46,164 nucleotides of DNA from Deinococcales bacterium (GTDB lineage Bacteria; Deinococcota; Deinococci; Deinococcales; JAAFIG01), in NCBI GenBank assembly GCA_031414595.1, contig JANNVX010000039.1, positions 1 through 46,164 of the forward strand, in the 5' to 3' direction. Shown here in pieces: positions 36,001 through 42,000 of this stretch; within the stretch, counting starts at the first letter, position 1; each line of letters opens with the position of its first letter. The position numbers are program-made.

Positions 36001-39000
36001 GCACTTCGTAATCACCGCTTAAAACGCCTGATGCTTGAAGCCCAAGCCCAAGGCGCAAAAGCCTTGCAGCGTCACCTTGCTACTGCCCTAGGGGTGGCAG
36101 TACGCACCATCGAAACCGATTTTTCTCAATTTAAGACTACAGCACAGGAAAAATCTCTGAACTCGAGTTCAGATTAAACAATCTGTAATTTTCGGGATGT
36201 AGATGTTTAGCTCGCCGCAAGTGATACCTGTGCGATTAGGTTCTTGTATTCTTGGTTATGAATTTTTTGCGATCTCGAGGCTGGGTTTTACTTGTACTGT
36301 TGCCAATAGCGGCGTTTGTCGCGTGGTTGCTACTGCCCAAAGCATTACATATGAACATTGTCGAAGCCAAAACCGAACACTTTTTTCGGATCGGTCAGCA
36401 TGATATTCGGATTGTCCTCAGTCCCTTGGCAAAAGGTGATAACGGCACGGCTGAAGTTCAGATTTACAATGGTACAATCCTGCTCGAGTCTCGAGAATCG
36501 CTGTTTAACTACGACACGCTGCAAAATAATCCTCCTGCCTTTGTGCGTTATGCGTGGCTGGATGGGGATTTAATACCAGATTTACTGCTCGAGTTGCAAT
36601 CTGAATCCTTGTACCTCAGCAGCCAAAGCGGAAAGGTCGTGGCTTTATGAATAACTTTGTGTACTTACCCGCCGAGGGCATCTGGCGAAGTATCCCAAAC
36701 CCAGACTCGAGTTTTGAGATTCTAATAGCGGGTGACAGCACTGAACCCAACTCGGCGCATTTGGCATTTCTGGGGGATTTACTACCGCATCTCGAGGCGG
36801 TGCGGCTTAGGGCAATTGGCTACTTAACGGTTTTTGTGAATCCAGCCCTTAAGCTAGATTGGTTTTTTGAAGCACTGCACATCACAGGTGATTTTGCCAC
36901 CGAATTTGAATTATCTTTTTCGCTCGAGTCAGATGTTTACGGCGATTGGCGGGTTGGTTTTTACACCATCAATCAGCATTTTGAACCTGATTCGTTCTCG
37001 AGGACGCAGAGATGAACTTTTAGCAATTGTTACCTAGACGAATACCTGATTAACTACATTTTTCCTGTACAGGATTATACTTATTGCAAGAAATCAGCTA
37101 ACATGAGGTTCTTAGGAGATTCCATGAAAATACGTGCTGGTTTTGTTATCCACAATCCATTGACCAATTCAAAGACCGTAGTTCTCAAAACAGAGGTTGA
37201 AACCCAAGGCAGAGGTTGGTTGCTTGAAGTCGAAAGTGTGCCTAATAATTTGCCTGATATTGCTGAGCATCTTCATACCACTTGGACAGAAACTTTTGAA
37301 ATTATTTCTGGTGAAGCGAATTACAAAATTGATGGGATTCAAAAAACGGCTCGAGTAGGCGATGTATTTGTGGTACATCCACGCCAAACCCATATTCATC
37401 CTTGGGCAGTTGGAAATTCCAATATGGTTTATCGGCAAAGCAATGTTTTTGCACAACCTAACCTAGAAGCCGTACAGGAGGTGCTAGGGGTATTTGCGAG
37501 TACCGCAGGTTTGGCTCGAGAAGGTAAAGTTCATCCAGATGGCAAACCGAAAAATCCACTACAGCTTGCGGTCTCGCTTGCAACTTTGGTTCGACATGGG
37601 GGATATGATGCCAGTTTACCCATACCTTTGCAGAATTTTGTGGTGGCAACATTGGGAAGGCTTGCGTTTGCCATGGGATACCGCGCAGTTTACCCTGAGT
37701 ATTTAAGTAACCAGCCACCAAATTCCTAAAAACGGTGCGGGCAATCGGGTATTTAACGGTTTTTTACACTGTACTGAATCTACTCGAGACGAGAAGACTT
37801 GATGAGGGAGTCCGTTTTAATGTGGGCTTGCCTTGCAGAGAATACTTTTGCTTTTTGGTATCTTCACTCCATGAGTTTAATAATTGGTCAAGCCGCCCCA
37901 GAATTTAATGCAGCAGACGACACTGGCAAAGCAATTTCCCTGGCAGCACTGAGTGGGCGTTGGGTGGTGCTTTATTTTTATCCAAAGGATAACACTGCGG
38001 GTTGTAGTATTGAAGCCGCTAAGTTTGAGCAAATTCTGCCAGAATTGAATCAGTTAGGGGCGGAAGTCATTGGCGTTTCGACGGATTCAAGTGCTTCACA
38101 TGCGAGTTTTAGGCAAAAATGTAATTTAACCTTTCCTTTGCTTCCAGATACCGATAAAAAAATCTCGCAGGCGTTTGGCGTGGTCGGTGGTTTACTTGGG
38201 GCGATTGGTTTTGCGCGACAAAGTTTTTTGATTGACCCCCAAGGTATATTGGTTAAGCATTGGAAGTTGGTCGTAAATCCAATGACCCATGCCATAGAAG
38301 TCAAACAAGAACTCGAGGCGCAACAAAAAAGCCGCCAGTCATAGGCGGCTTTTTGAAGGTTAGAATTCTTTACTCGAGAATTCGTTTTAAGTTGCGGTAA
38401 ATGTCGTACCAGTCTTCTTTGGTTTGTGGACGTTTGCCGCGCAATTCAATACGGGCAAGGCTCGAGACCCAATCTGGGGTGATTTGTCCGCCAAGCACGG
38501 GGTCAGAGACCAGTTCGGCAAGTCCTTTTGGCAATGCCTGAGCGCTGACTTCGCCGTAGAATTCGACTGGGCTTAGTAGGTCGTGGACGGTGATGTTGTA
38601 AGAGGCTGCCAAAGTTTGCAAGGTTTCCAAACTTGGGTTGGTGCGTCCGCGTTCAAGGTCGGATAGGTACGGGATGCTGATTCCAGCAATTTCGCTGACA
38701 TCTTTGAGGCGTTGTCCGCGTTCGGAACGGAGTTCGCGCAGGCGTTCGTGGAGTTTCATGGGTGTTCCTCCTTGTTCTCAAAGGGTGCTTGGTTTGCTCG
38801 GGCAGGGGCTTTGAGCGCATCGGCTCGTGCTTTGTTGAGCGCACCGTCTTGAGTTTTGTCGCTGGGTAAATTCCTTGCGACTATTCTGCTTGTGACGAGG
38901 TTAGCACAAAGTTTGGTTTCGGTCAAGACGTAATCTAGGCTTGGACTTGATGAAATCACGAAATTATGCTAGAATCATAAAAGTTAGGTCAGTTACGACC

Positions 39001-42000
39001 ATACATGCTAGGACTGTTAGACCATACATGCTAGGACTGTTACGGAGGACACCATGCGAATACTCGAGACCATTGCCAAAAGCCTAAGAAGCCAATCTAT
39101 TCATCCCACAGTTGTCTATAACGCTCTGATAGACCTCGAGAACAACGCTGGTATTGGGGCGATTGCCGACCTCGAGTATCGTCTTGCTCGTTTGGTTCGT
39201 GCCATGAAAGAGCGCGACGACCTTGCCACGGGCATTGCTGCCGCATGGCTTTCCAGCACCCGAGCTTACCTAGAACAATTTGGCACAGTCGAACCGATTT
39301 CGCAGCCAATAAACCCTTTGCACAGCACAGTTTTACGGCTGGTGCAACCCAAATTAAAGTCAATGCCGTTTTCATTCGGCACAAACTTAATTCCTCAAGG
39401 AGTGTAGCTTATGCCAGACCAAACTTGCGCTCATCTTTCGCCAATTGGGAATTGGTGTCGCTTGAAGAACAATTTCAAATGCCCCGCCCAAGCCGGACGA
39501 ATCGGTTGCCCATTTCCTAAAATCCCTAGCCTCAACGACCGTGCCGAAGACCGCCGTGACCGCATTGCTAAAGCCATTGCCTTAGAGACCATCGAAGTAT
39601 CTGCCCCAAGCATTATTCCAAGCCCACTCGAGCAAGTGCGAATTCTACACCTCGAGCGCCAAATGCTTGAACGCCAAACCGCTTTTGAGCGCCTGACCGA
39701 ATTATTTCCACAAGAGTTAATAGAGTGGCGATTCGAGAGCCGTTCACGCGACCAACGCCGTGCTTTGGTACGCCCTGTGCTAAGTGCTAAAACCGTAACA
39801 GACCGTCTCGAGACAGTGGTTGGAACAGCCAATTGGAGCGATTTTTACACCAACCTGCCCGGCTCACGGGTGGCTTGCCGTTTAACGGTGCTGGGTGTGA
39901 CCAAAGAAGCCATTTCTGCTGCCCTCGAGCCAGAACTGGCTTACAACGACGCACTGGTACGGGCGGCGGCTAAATTTGGGGTCGGACGTGCCTTAGAACG
40001 GATTGTTGGCACTTGGGTAGACTGGGATGACAACCGCAGCCAACCGCTCGAGCCGCCAGTCTTACCAGATTGGGCAGTGGCAACACCAGCCCCACAAATT
40101 GTGCAAATCCTGCCAAGCCAGCAAGTAGCGGAGGCTCGCGCAGGCGAAAAACTGATTACCGATTTAATCAAAGCGGTGCGTCAATTGCCTGGCGGTGAAA
40201 TCGAACTGCGCCGTTTGATGCGTCGTCGTAACCGTTGGCATACCAGCACCGATACCGATAAACGCGCTTTGTACAGCGAACTGCGTAAAGCCTACCGTCA
40301 ATTGTCTGGTGGTGCAATGCAGAGTGTTTGAAAGGCTATGAGCTATGGGCTTTGAGCTTTGAGTTAAGGACTGCCAAATTTATTAAACGGAAGTAGCCGC
40401 CATGTGGCTCTACCCGCCACATCTTCGGCTTTGACCAGCCCAAATGCCCTCGAGTCTAGGCTTGCTCCCAAACGCCGATTATCGCCCATCACATAGTAGC
40501 TACCTTGGCGCACGACGGTTTTCATGGCGTTGTCCGAGCCTTGATTTTCAGAAATATAGTATTCACGCAAGCGTTCGCCGTTTAATAAAACCGTGCCGTC
40601 TTTGACTTGGATGGTGTCGCCCGGTACACCAATAATGCGTTTAATCAGATACGGACGAAAAGTCCAGTCAGATGGGATTTTCCAAGCCAGTAAATTTAGT
40701 ACAGGCAGCCCCTCGAGAAAGACCGACATCGGCTCAAAACTGTTGGGATTGTCCTGTGGGGGTTTAACCACAATTAAATCTCCGCGTTGCAAATAATTCG
40801 GACGAATTCCCCAAGCCGCAAACCAGCGCTCGAGTTTATAGACCAGTAAATAATCACCAGATTCAAGCGTCGGACTCATGCTTTCACCACGCACACCAAC
40901 TGGAATGACCAAAAAAGTCACGACCAACCAAGCGGGTAAAAGGGTTTCGAGAACGACTTCTTTAAGGATTCGTTTCCACCACGGCATTGGTGCTTTTTTG
41001 TCTGGTAGTGCAGGTAATTCTGGCATTTAACCAGAGTGTACGATGACCCAGATGAGCTTAATGACGTTTTTTGGCTTTCCAAGTTCCGCCGTACCGATAA
41101 CCAGCAAACTCGAGTTCGGCTTTTGTTCGACATTTTGGACATAAGTAAACCCAAGGTTGATTCACCCCAAGTTGCACACGGTACAAGATCAGCCCAAGGG
41201 CAGTACAGTGGTCACAGGTTTTTTGGCGAATTCGAGTGGCTTTCATTTAGATGGTTGTCAGGTTACGGCTGCTTTGGCGCTGCGTTTGCGACTATACATC
41301 TGAGCATCGGCACGCTCGAGAATCGCATCTACTTCGTCTTGGCGGTTGACTGGAATACTGCCAACATCGCCTTTGACAATTAAGATTCCTTTGGAGGTTT
41401 TGATAGGGGCAGTAAAAATTTGCTCTAATCGAGCCTGTAAATCTGGGTGCTGCGAAGCGATTAAAAATTCGTCACCACCAATTCGAGCCACCAAATCGTT
41501 TGGGCGAACACTGGCAATTAAACGCTTGGCAACTTCATGCAGCACTTCGTCACCAGTTTTATGCCCGAGTTTGTCATTAAATCCCTTAAAGTCGGTCAGG
41601 TCAACATAGGCTACCGAAACGGCTTCGCCGCTTTTACACATTTCCTCGAGCCGCTCTAAACCTGCTGAACGGTTATACAACAAACTCAAAAGAGGGTCGC
41701 GGCGGGCAGCCCGACGCTCGAGCGATAAGGTCATGGCGGCTGCACCCATTGAGGAAAGCGCCACAAAAAACATTGAACCAGTGAGTAAGTCAAAATTCTG
41801 CCATGTCCCAGCAATACCGCACCCCGCTCCCATCAGCAACATCCACGGAATTGGTTTGGTTTCTCCATCTACCAGATTGGCGAGGGCAACGCCAAAAAAC
41901 CAGACTGGGATAATCATTAAAAAAGGACTGTTTTTACCGCCCGTAGATAAAATCATCAGGCTTAAGGTAATCGTGTCGGTAAACGCCAAAGCCCAGCGAA

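Follow-up and report, generated by a model that had tools for sequence, protein, structure and literature searches.

Known IrrE/DdrO systems and the ddrO-ddrQ-ddrA locus

The closest described counterpart is Deinococcus's RDR (radiation-desiccation-response) regulon (PMC5552922, PMC8533742, PMC6868357), with the protease IrrE, the repressor DdrO and a 17-bp operator, the RDRM; in D. radiodurans 41 of 222 RDRM-like sites are bound and most are unbound (PMC8533742). Close homologues of IrrE and DdrO have been described in Deinobacterium, Calidithermus, Meiothermus, Marinithermus and Oceanithermus (PMC8072749), and in M. hydrothermalis and O. profundus cleavage of DdrO at L106/R107 is stimulated by ssDNA (PMC12828697). 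IrrE/DdrO outside Deinococcus is already known, and the survey's finding that the regulon extends beyond that genus, with the novelty this implied, is expected and largely in print (PMC8072749, PMC12828697).

The window analysed here is a contig stretch of 46,164 nucleotides from genome G000, a 94% complete bin (0.5% contamination, 47% GC) of an uncultured family sister to Deinococcus, f1, for which 19 genomes from five genera were compared; according to their public titles these are metagenome bins. The comparison set also comprised the Deinococcus family f3 and the pair f4/f5, which we infer to be Thermales-like. The window very probably contains the control centre of an IrrE/DdrO RDR regulon that f1 inherited vertically. 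All four proteins that the survey had reported, IrrE, DdrO, DdrA and DdrB, are present. As in Deinococcus, DdrO is full-length, with an XRE domain, a dimerisation domain and the cleavage loop with L106/R107, the features described in PMC6868357; it matches PDB 6jq1 at E = 2e-64 and f3 orthologues at 77-80%. IrrE, encoded on another contig (G000:C88:237243-238028, minus strand), matches 8slm at E = 1e-61 and aligns over residues 7-257 with 8slm and 3dte, a three-domain protein with a GAF-like region and an HEXXH motif (HEVTH at residue 73), a motif kept in 30/30 IrrE loci. Across f1, IrrE was found in 19/19 genomes and DdrO, full-length or cut by a contig end, in 18/19; DdrB (PF12747, on contig C41 of G000) occurs in 9/19. 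The irrE gene of G000 lacks an RDRM (rank 1557), as in Deinococcus.

The features of the window are listed in the table. The survey had described a DdrO/DdrA pair with RDRMs; both genes and both 17-mers are there, but the gene facing ddrO is ddrQ (name from PMC5552922), which had been overlooked and for which Pfam, NCBIfam and PHROG hold no family. The divergent ddrO/ddrQ arrangement is that of Deinococcus. Unlike in Deinococcus, ddrA stands behind ddrQ without a separate operator (0/14 loci with the Deinococcus-trained matrix), and irrE is the next gene after ddrO in 8/18 f1 loci, against 0/51 Deinococcus-titled loci. The f4/f5 loci carry the same two operators (6/6) with ddrO and irrE adjacent (6/6), and one of them, G025, has the full ddrA-ddrQ/ddrO-irrE order; in the literature searched we found no earlier account of this cassette as common to more distant families.

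Features of the window (coordinates in nucleotides from the first letter of the stretch)
Feature	Coordinates	Strand	Observations
uvrB, regulon member	629..2662	-	domain searches
RDRM of uvrB	2722..2738	.	76 bp 5' of uvrB; rank 5 of 4154 genes; 17/17 f1 genomes
ddrO, XRE repressor, 129 aa	38370..38759	-	D96, R103, E105, L106, R107 kept
candidate ddrO promoter, extended -10-like	38898..38926	-	read by eye; absent from consensus-scan calls; conserved islands in alignment A5
RDRM-1	38917..38933	.	174 bp 5' of ddrO; 14.0 bits (Deinococcus-only matrix); at least 12 bits in 17/17 f1 loci
predicted sigma-70-type promoter for ddrQ-ddrA	38947..38975	+	scan 9/12 with TG; -10 within RDRM-2
RDRM-2	38964..38980	.	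90 bp 5' of ddrQ; 13.5 bits
ddrQ homologue, 117 aa	39054..39407	+	37-50% to the ddrO-facing ORF of 49/51 Deinococcus-titled loci
ddrA-like, Rad52-fold protein, 306 aa	39411..40331	+	starts 3 bp behind ddrQ

The likely ddrO promoter comprises a -35-like hexamer (38926-38921) within RDRM-1, a 17-nt spacer and an extended -10-like hexamer (38903-38898). The consensus scan found two promoter sites where 0.9 were expected, and the ddrQ-ddrA call is therefore weak by itself. The equivalent of RDRM-2 scores at least 9.5 bits in 15/17 f1 loci and is weak in both genomes of genus g3. Several RDRM sites overlap promoter boxes, and the cinA site the first codons, sequences that are constrained anyway. 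In one RNA run 0.06 of words matched, and the contigs of relatives were less than 95% alike, with a depth of 2-5 over ddrO, ddrQ and ddrA, so nothing on expression or habitat is inferred from it.

Operator conservation and regulon membership

A matrix learned de novo on 35 upstream regions, all from f3, yielded a motif equal to the published RDRM; a second matrix was built from other f1 genera. Nine loci whose start was wrong or missing, or which were second copies (L308, L316, L330, L319, L321, L187, L030, L257 and L197), were left out of the upstream-site counts; L246 and L196 had been excluded earlier. Among the f1 genomes, which are kin and thus not independent, sites of at least 12 bits precede gyrA in 18/18, cinA in 18/18, uvrB in 17/17 and ddrO in 17/17; before ddrB, 5/8 reach 12 bits and 8/8 at least 10 bits. 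Every one of these transfer cases gave a shuffle P of 0.015 or less, whereas in genomes without DdrO/IrrE none of 30 upstream regions reached 12 bits (best 7.1). In a held-out test in G000, nine of the 14 published regulon genes outside the training set ranked within the top 4% of 4154 genes (P = 4e-10, binomial). Position gave a similar signal: of the G000 matches of at least 14 bits, 41% fall in promoter zones, which occupy 9% of G000. The reversed matrix places 11% of its matches there, and 60 permuted matrices place 12% on average; two of the 60 came up to the real matrix's number of promoter-zone matches at the 12- and 14-bit thresholds.

Raw counts behaved differently. At 14 bits or more the RDRM matrix has 27 matches in G000 and the reversed control 56, and the excess of the strict 17-bp pattern over its reversed control that the survey's claim called for is absent (19 against 31); the strict pattern exceeds its control in 4/19 f1 genomes against 6/6 in f3. 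Raw genome-wide counts, showing no excess over reversed or permuted controls in this 47% GC genome, were dropped as a test of the regulon. The 17-bp RDRM does stand in front of both ddrO and repair genes, although the raw-count control failed; the signal of the regulon rests on position and conservation, and raw counts contribute none. The survey's tally of 13 intergenic sites among the 16 best matches did not hold: with the Deinococcus-only matrix 6/16 lie in promoter zones, and with the other-genera matrix 11/16 are intergenic.

All the sites that the survey had placed upstream of genes were located in G000: gyrA (-66), cinA (-5), the second ssb (-95), ligA (-15), an alkZ-type glycosylase gene (-26), ddrB (-65), ddrO, uvrB, and between ruvA and a 'SWIM' gene, which we recast as the start of a ddrTUVWX-type operon. 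The operator also precedes recQ, recG, ruvB and polA; its matches before gyrB and uvrA are weaker. The sites at gyrA, cinA-recA, uvrB, ddrB, ssb, ruvB, recQ, recG, ligA and ddrT, and weakly at gyrB and uvrA, parallel those of Deinococcus; differences are the absence of ligT between cinA and recA in f1, an operator at the second, stand-alone ssb only of the two ssb genes, and no uvrD site. In 10/18 f1 genomes the distance of the gyrA site is -61 to -66, as reported for some of them; the remaining eight have it farther away, at -138 to -278. A ruvB site was found in a g3 genome, and the site assigned to nurA in g4 is present, although the gene's name lacks Pfam support. Peripheral members are less constant, with sites of at least 12 bits before alkZ in 1/4 other genomes, ddrT in 1/4, the putative nurA in 2/5 and the second ssb in 1/5; recN, with 4/19, all in g1, was ruled out as a new family-wide member. 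In G000 no site stands before uvrD (rank 2201), mutS (992), hflX (3250), the ssb gene in the operon (1452) or the second uvrA (1630), nor before tkt, which was ranked with the second matrix only (1957). High-scoring sites also precede an AbiJ-N gene (C87), the gene of a 936-aa protein (C90), clpP, an ABC gene and a DinB gene.

The set of regulon members appears to have been rewired: no DdrC, DdrD or PprA turned up in G000, DdrB has a patchy distribution and DdrA has changed. The searches for DdrC (three queries), DdrD (three; the protein so labelled has no PDB match) and PprA (one) used single sequences against the 94% complete genome; RecD, HelD and a WGR-domain member were likewise not found with one query each. 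The LexA domains PF01726 and PF00717 gave no match in G000 while control searches did, which points to LexA independence; PF01726 occurs in 1/19 f1 genomes, yet in only 1/6 of f3. As no LexA was found, IrrE/DdrO is probably the main damage switch in f1.

Proposed mode of action and alternative explanations

Judged from sequence, repressor and protease are intact, and the operator is conserved on or beside putative promoter elements of ddrO, ddrQ-ddrA, gyrA, cinA-recA, uvrB, ddrB and an annealase-fold gene described below. On the model published for Deinococcus and Thermales, dimers of DdrO on the RDRMs would block transcription; DNA damage, through ssDNA or freed zinc, would activate IrrE; IrrE would cut DdrO at L106/R107 and so derepress the genes; and ddrO would re-repress itself. 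The survey's statement that the regulon operates in this family thus divides: independent training, held-out genes and negative-control genomes support the regulon well, while its operation we infer.

It is very unlikely that autoregulation of ddrO/ddrQ alone is real and the remaining palindromes are chance products or side effects of constraints on promoters and codons at 47% GC. The raw counts without excess, the many high-scoring matches in coding DNA and the overlap of the cinA site with start codons would fit such an account, but gyrA, cinA and uvrB upstream regions reach 12 bits in 53/53 f1 cases against 0/30 in repressor-less genomes, the held-out result would be left unexplained, and sites are kept at differing distances, that of the annealase-fold gene behind differing neighbours. 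Less probable still is a recent transfer of the IrrE/DdrO system from Deinococcus, or a binning artefact, which might be suspected as the genomes are metagenome bins: the IrrE, DdrO and UvrB trees (the last built with a quick method) are congruent, each placing f1 as a single group sister to f3, so inheritance is the expected state, and the genes span five genera, with sites scattered over numerous contigs of a bin whose contamination is 0.5%. The chances are about even that the regulon, though real, serves ordinary damage (sunlight UV, oxidative or replication stress) as an SOS substitute without Deinococcus-like resistance, which is compatible with the main reading and concerns phenotype. 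The missing DdrC, DdrD and PprA in G000, the patchy DdrB, the eroded DdrA core motifs, the single f1 genome with a LexA domain and the much smaller footprint in f4/f5 (cinA 3/6, gyrA 1/6, uvrB 1/6) favour ordinary damage control; against it, radiation-resistant Deinococcus species also individually lack ddrA, ddrD or pprA (PMC5552922), and the f1 footprint, unlike that of f4/f5, is Deinococcus-sized and as complete on gyrA, cinA-recA and uvrB as in f3. On the main reading, the full repair regulon, beyond the protease/repressor pair, predates the divergence of Deinococcus and f1. An old core (ddrO, ddrQ, cinA-recA, gyrA, uvrB) can be set apart from ddrC, ddrD and pprA, not found here, and the question of which additions confer extreme resistance can therefore be posed.

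Altered DdrA and a candidate phage-derived annealase

The DdrA-like protein has the Rad52 fold (Z 10.5, rmsd 2.9, 119 residues aligned) and is 40-45% identical to Deinococcus DdrA over residues 86-223, consistent with an orthologous core. It differs in an N-terminal extension restricted to f1, with Cys6, His8, Cys16, Cys24 and Cys33 followed by helices, for which neither a fold, a family nor an Atlas match was found (pLDDT about 50). The f3 motifs [YH][IV]DAR and ALKR...YLY, which by analogy with RAD52 may bind ssDNA, are replaced in the window protein and lost in g1, g3 and g5; G010 keeps them. No earlier account of a DdrA that combines a Cys/His extension with erosion of the core motifs was found in the literature searched.

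An annealase-fold gene appears to be the member added relative to Deinococcus. It lies on another contig (G000:C86:98600-99457), occurs in 17/19 f1 genomes and in none of 22 others, and has an RDRM in 16/17 carriers, behind differing neighbours; no earlier account of such an f1-restricted, RDRM-bearing gene was found in the literature searched. The model of its product (hereafter C86; pLDDT at least 90 over residues 1-100) has a hairpin, a helix, three strands and a helix, then a three-helix C-terminal domain, and so conforms to the beta-hairpin and three-stranded sheet crossed by a helix that define the SSAP fold (PMC11783212). In both fold searches the top rows are RAD52 (Z 9.4), Sak (8.7) and Mgm101, over about 100 residues including the hairpin, and the C-terminal domain separately matches that of Red-beta (Z 8.7, with 66 residues aligned at rmsd 2.1). 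Head-to-tail self-assembly was predicted with a score of 0.70 against 0.00 for the best control, a mark reached by 20/30 solved pairs and 1/23 solved single chains, although likeness to solved rings may cause the pass; across runs at least 96% of contacts agree, with pLDDT at least 86. C86 thus resembles human RAD52, phage 80alpha Sak, Mgm101 and, in its C-terminal domain, lambda Red-beta in fold and predicted oligomer. It differs from them in its 11-20% identity, the lack of a sequence-profile match, its chromosomal position between housekeeping genes and its host damage operator. Its closest homologues are Thermus phage proteins; a phage homologue is annotated as an ssDNA-binding protein, and its gene neighbours code for a helicase and a Holliday junction resolvase.

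We regard C86 as a probably phage-derived protein of the Rad52/Sak fold that most likely adds single-strand annealing. It is rather unlikely, though worth weighing, that the gene is DdrO-controlled yet encodes a dsRBD-like nucleic-acid binder or protein adaptor. The protein falls in PF27148, which the newer Pfam names Slr1353_N and describes as dsRBD-like, and in unnamed PHROGs; it has no local Pfam match to the named SSAP families Rad52, Erf, Sak or RecT and no Foldseek match at E of 0.001 or below, its profile matches neither DdrA nor PDB sequences, and dsRBDs reach Z 6-7.3, near the 9.4 of RAD52 (rmsd 3.5, 11-20% identity). However, dsRBDs cover 64-77 residues and lack the top places taken by RAD52, Sak and Mgm101, and the Red-beta-like domain, the predicted self-assembly and the recombination module in phage also argue for an annealase. 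One Atlas cluster, at rank 30, has 20% SSAP_Sak members.

On the annealase reading, the gene is a concrete candidate for an annealase that was domesticated from phage and put under the damage control of the host. More tentatively, and at slightly under even chances, an f1 ancestor may have acquired a Rad52/Sak annealase of Thermus-phage type whose tail resembles that of Red-beta and binds SSB or an exonuclease; this annealase would have become chromosomally fixed and wired to DdrO and would now carry out the annealing step of genome reassembly done by DdrB and DdrA in Deinococcus, the ddrA-ddrQ/ddrO-irrE cassette being the ancestral seed of the regulon. Such a capture would account for DdrB being patchy and for the remodelling of DdrA, possibly a zinc sensor, and the uncharacterised PF27148/Slr1353 family would gain an annealase function.

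The ddrO-ddrQ-ddrA locus and its arrangement

The survey's finding placed ddrO and ddrA between 38370 and 40331 of the window; ddrO and a ddrA-like gene are indeed there, together with a third gene it had left unnamed, ddrQ, which the available text of PMC5552922 defines as an 83-aa gene divergent from ddrO. The DdrO of the window retains D96, R103, E105, L106 and R107, residues whose roles are taken from the accessible part of PMC6868357. The DdrA-like protein matches f3 proteins at 40-45% over residues 86-223, and its predicted model resembles RAD52 (Z 10.5, rmsd 2.9, 119 aligned). 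Both copies of the radiation/desiccation response motif (RDRM) in the spacer are conservation islands in an alignment of nine genomes; RDRM-1 contains the ddrO -35 box, as judged by eye, and RDRM-2 the predicted -10 box of ddrQ. An exact 23-bp tandem duplication lies in the ddrQ leader (38997-39042), between RDRM-2 and the ribosome-binding site, and is absent from the eight other aligned family genomes. Two large regulator-like proteins, unrelated to the regulon, are encoded at 2782-5679 and 32842-36177; the former has NB-ARC/AAA and TPR domains and a similar protein on contig C67 (locus L137).

Features of the window, of its genome (G000) and of f2 genomes
Feature	Position	Strand	Remarks
ddrO	38370-38759	-	E=2e-64 to PDB 6jq1 over residues 1-128; E=3e-63 to 6rnx
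RDRM-1 and RDRM-2 (17-mers)	38917 and 38964	.	within the 294-bp ddrO-ddrQ spacer
ddrQ	39054-39407	+	37-50% to the ORF facing ddrO in 49/51 Deinococcus-titled loci
ddrA-like	39411-40331	+	starts 3 bp after ddrQ; Erf-like PHROG, E=5e-15
irrE	G000:C88:237243-238028	-	full length, HEVTH
C86 gene	G000:C86:98600-99457		285 aa; site at -29, rank 10 and 6 (two matrices)
LexA-domain/DdrA-like pair	G019:C4:3642380-3644073		f2
LexA-domain/DdrA-like pair	G031:C1:382323-383905		f2

In the window's family, f1, 8 of 18 loci have irrE behind ddrO at a distance of at most 1.5 kb (6/6 in genus g5, and genomes G009 and G010), as do 6/6 f4/f5 loci, whereas this holds for 0 of 51 Deinococcus-titled loci. In the window's genus (g1), in G013 and in G012, irrE was not found behind ddrO, although two of the loci concerned are short. 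Similarly, ddrA comes after ddrQ in G025 and, as identified by core match, in 14 of 16 f1-type loci, but in 0 of the 51 Deinococcus-titled loci. Given these adjacencies in f1, f4/f5 and G025, ddrA-ddrQ/ddrO-irrE is likely the ancestral order, from which irrE likely moved in the window's genus. The f1 DdrA carries an N-terminal extension with Cys6, His8, Cys16, Cys24 and Cys33 (10/10 f1 rows of the alignment, 0/10 others), for which zinc binding is our guess, and, G010 excepted, has lost motifs kept by f3; two f5 rows are eroded too. DdrB occurs in 9/19 f1 genomes; DdrC, DdrD and PprA were not found in G000 with three, three and one queries, respectively.

Inheritance of DdrO and IrrE and conservation of operators

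The order was surveyed in 41 genomes. A DdrO orthologue was found in 18/19 of f1 (one cut by a contig end; the missing genome is a 74% complete bin), 6/6 of f3, 4/5 of f4, 2/5 of f5 and 0/6 of f2; the counts for IrrE are 19/19, 6/6, 4/5, 2/5 and 0/6. We infer that f3 is Deinococcus, from the identity range of named records and the presence of PprA and DdrC, and that f4 and f5 are Thermales-like and f2 Trueperaceae-like. All DdrO relatives at 81-100% identity come from bins titled Deinococcales or Deinococcota. In midpoint-rooted trees of IrrE (30 rows), DdrO (29) and UvrB (30, by a quick method), f1 is a single group beside f3 (support 90/86, 95/91 and 100), the pattern of vertical descent in a sister family. 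A second copy of ddrO (L126; 74% over residues 16-129), with no ddrQ nearby, is present in one genome of the family. By Pfam, the UvrB of L288 (972-2500, G003) is interrupted, roughly after residue 48, by an intein that contains LAGLIDADG and HTH domains; two f1 and three f3 genomes share the insertion point (L288, with a gap likewise in L279, L285, L286 and L287), and the uvrB of G000 is without it.

Since the survey's motif had been trained on the very genome scanned, ours was trained on other genomes, by an unseeded palindromic Gibbs search of six f3 genomes (35 upstream regions in all), which recovered RDRM (compare Table 2 in the available text of PMC8533742). Eleven loci were first excluded because their starts were unreliable or they were duplicate copies (L308, L316, L330, L319, L321, L187, L030, L257, L197, L246 and L196). 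The motif then scored at least 12 bits in f1 before gyrA (18/18), cinA (18/18), uvrB (17/17) and ddrO (17/17), and before ddrB in 5/8 (8/8 at 10 bits or more; shuffle P <= 0.015 for each gene). At 12 bits it was found in 0/14 regions upstream of f1 ddrA and in 0/30 regions of the ten genomes without DdrO/IrrE (top score 7.1). In f4/f5, six genomes have the pair, and in these the motif stands before ddrO (6/6), cinA (3/6), gyrA (1/6) and uvrB (1/6). Outside this core, sites of at least 12 bits precede recN in 4/19, alkZ in 1/4, ddrT in 1/4, putative nurA in 2/5 and the second ssb in 1/5, the last two keeping weaker sites (8.4-9.8) at similar places; those of recG, polA and ruvB were found again in G013. 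Peripheral sites are mostly genus-level, and the AlkZ-type glycosylase site of the survey's finding stands in G000 (rank 26) and in 1 of 4 other genomes.

In G013, a perfect RDRM (L361) lies between divergent ruvB (-20) and another gene (-27), presumably photolyase/cryptochrome-like from its sequence, hinting at a coupling to light repair. Genome G012, of genus g2, has a 15.6-bit site at -77 of the housekeeping ssb after rpsF (L459), a Deinococcus-like state unlike that of the four other genomes tested. The sole DdrB outside f1/f3 belongs to an f4 genome, where it is on a second contig (L195, G037:C2) and lacks an operator.

We consider it highly probable that this uncultured sister family of Deinococcus has a real, inherited radiation-desiccation-response (RDR) regulon. 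The accessible parts of PMC8072749, PMC6868357 and PMC6300522 already report IrrE/DdrO beyond Deinococcus, and that of PMC12828697 shows DdrO cleavage for two Thermales; a regulon beyond Deinococcus is ordinary as a headline, and the interest lies in a variant in wiring and one testable new member. In the open-access literature (supplements aside) on Thermales genera, Trueperaceae, Deinococcota and uncultured Deinococcales, we found no operator-level RDRM or RDR regulon study outside Deinococcus.

Genome-wide ranking of sites, and LexA

Using our own gene calls for G000 (4154 genes), the sites ranked gyrA 1, second ssb 3, uvrB 5, cinA 7, ruvA/ddrT 12-13, recQ 18, ddrO 21, ligA 24, alkZ 26, recG 29, ruvB 44, polA 47, gyrB 76, ddrB 109 and uvrA 153. 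The reported sites of gyrA, ddrB, ddrO, cinA-recA, uvrB, ligA, second ssb and ruvA/SWIM were thus recovered with the independent f3 matrix, and the reported IrrE and DdrB are present. Pfam or NCBIfam identified DdrB, gyrA, cinA-recA, second ssb, ruvA, recG, ligA, recQ, uvrB and the AlkZ-like gene. In a held-out test, 9 of 14 published regulon genes or paralogues fell in the top 4% (P = 4e-10), and 7 of 14 when the matrix was built from the other genera of f1 (P = 4e-7). The list was drawn from the papers' tables and text, and several of its genes were already known from earlier scans when it was fixed; tkt, which ranked 1957 with the second matrix, is not among the 14, and regulon members that were not located in G000 are left uncounted.

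Raw counts did not exceed the reversed control: the strict pattern, on whose enrichment the survey had staked its claim, occurs 19 times against 31 in G000 (above control in 4/19 f1 and 6/6 f3 genomes), and hits of at least 14 bits number 27 against 56. An AT-rich motif is frequent by chance at 47% GC, and it is the position of the sites that carries the signal: 41% of these hits lie in promoter zones, compared with 11-12% in controls. At this cut-off the real promoter count was reached by 2 of the 60 permuted matrices. The reported 13 intergenic sites among 16 top hits became 6 and 11 with two new matrices. PMC8533742 (available text) reports binding at only 41 of the 222 motif-like sites of D. 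radiodurans, so sites known from a single genome should be held loosely. Strong RDRM-like sites precede an AbiJ-N-domain gene (L131, C87:683), a 936-aa protein of no family (L133, C90:29996) and a DinB-family gene (L139, C41:106991) that may be ddrR.

The ruvA/SWIM site lies 60 bp from the SWIM start and 160 bp from ruvA. The operon, SWIM-DUF5691-MoxR-DUF5682-ung-VWA, matches Deinococcus ddrTUVWX except for an inserted uracil-DNA glycosylase gene between DUF5682 and VWA (L289:6610-7317, on C111).

Judged from sequence, the parts are intact and the operators are on or near promoter elements. By extension from the accessible text of PMC8072749 and PMC12828697, DdrO dimers would repress, damage-activated IrrE would cut DdrO, and the regulon would be derepressed and afterwards reset through autoregulation. 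Searches of G000 (94% complete) for the two LexA domains gave no hit, while controls were detected; the LexA DNA-binding domain occurs in 1/19 f1 and 6/6 f2 genomes. The f2 genomes are without IrrE/DdrO, and in two of them a DdrA-like gene is preceded, at a distance of about 1 kb, by a gene with a LexA domain; LexA has possibly taken over the same target there.

The C86 gene, a candidate regulon member

This gene is present in 17/19 f1 and 0/22 other genomes, with a site of at least 12 bits in 16 of the 17, at -28 to -133 and behind varying neighbours: amidase and hydroxyacyl-CoA dehydrogenase (housekeeping) in G000 and, by our own reading, parA/parB-like genes in other genera. Residues 1-108 of its model, built from 60 of 120 listed homologues, resemble RAD52 (Z 9.4, rmsd 3.5, 101 aligned), Sak of phage 80alpha (8.7) and Mgm101 (7.9), and residues 210-280 the C-terminal domain of lambda Red-beta (8.7, rmsd 2.1, 66 aligned); the best dsRBD scored 7.3, and Foldseek put the same proteins on top, at E of about 0.001-0.004 only. 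Four copies of residues 1-112 are predicted to assemble head-to-tail (score 0.70, best control 0.00; at least 96% of contacts in agreement between runs, pLDDT at least 86), a mark reached by 20/30 solved pairs and 1/23 single chains and to which likeness to solved rings could contribute. The protein is probably an annealase. Its closest relatives among 23 phage records are from Thermus phages (41-47%); in one of these the homologue is annotated as an ssDNA-binding protein, and a helicase follows two genes later and a Holliday junction resolvase four genes later. We infer that the gene is of phage origin and may replace DdrB/DdrA; g1 keeps both DdrB and the C86 gene. The open-access literature on slr1353, SSAP families (including the available text of PMC11783212), DdrA and P23-45 yielded no function for the C86 family. 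An additional copy of the gene in G015 (L398) is more phage-like and has a weak site at -21.
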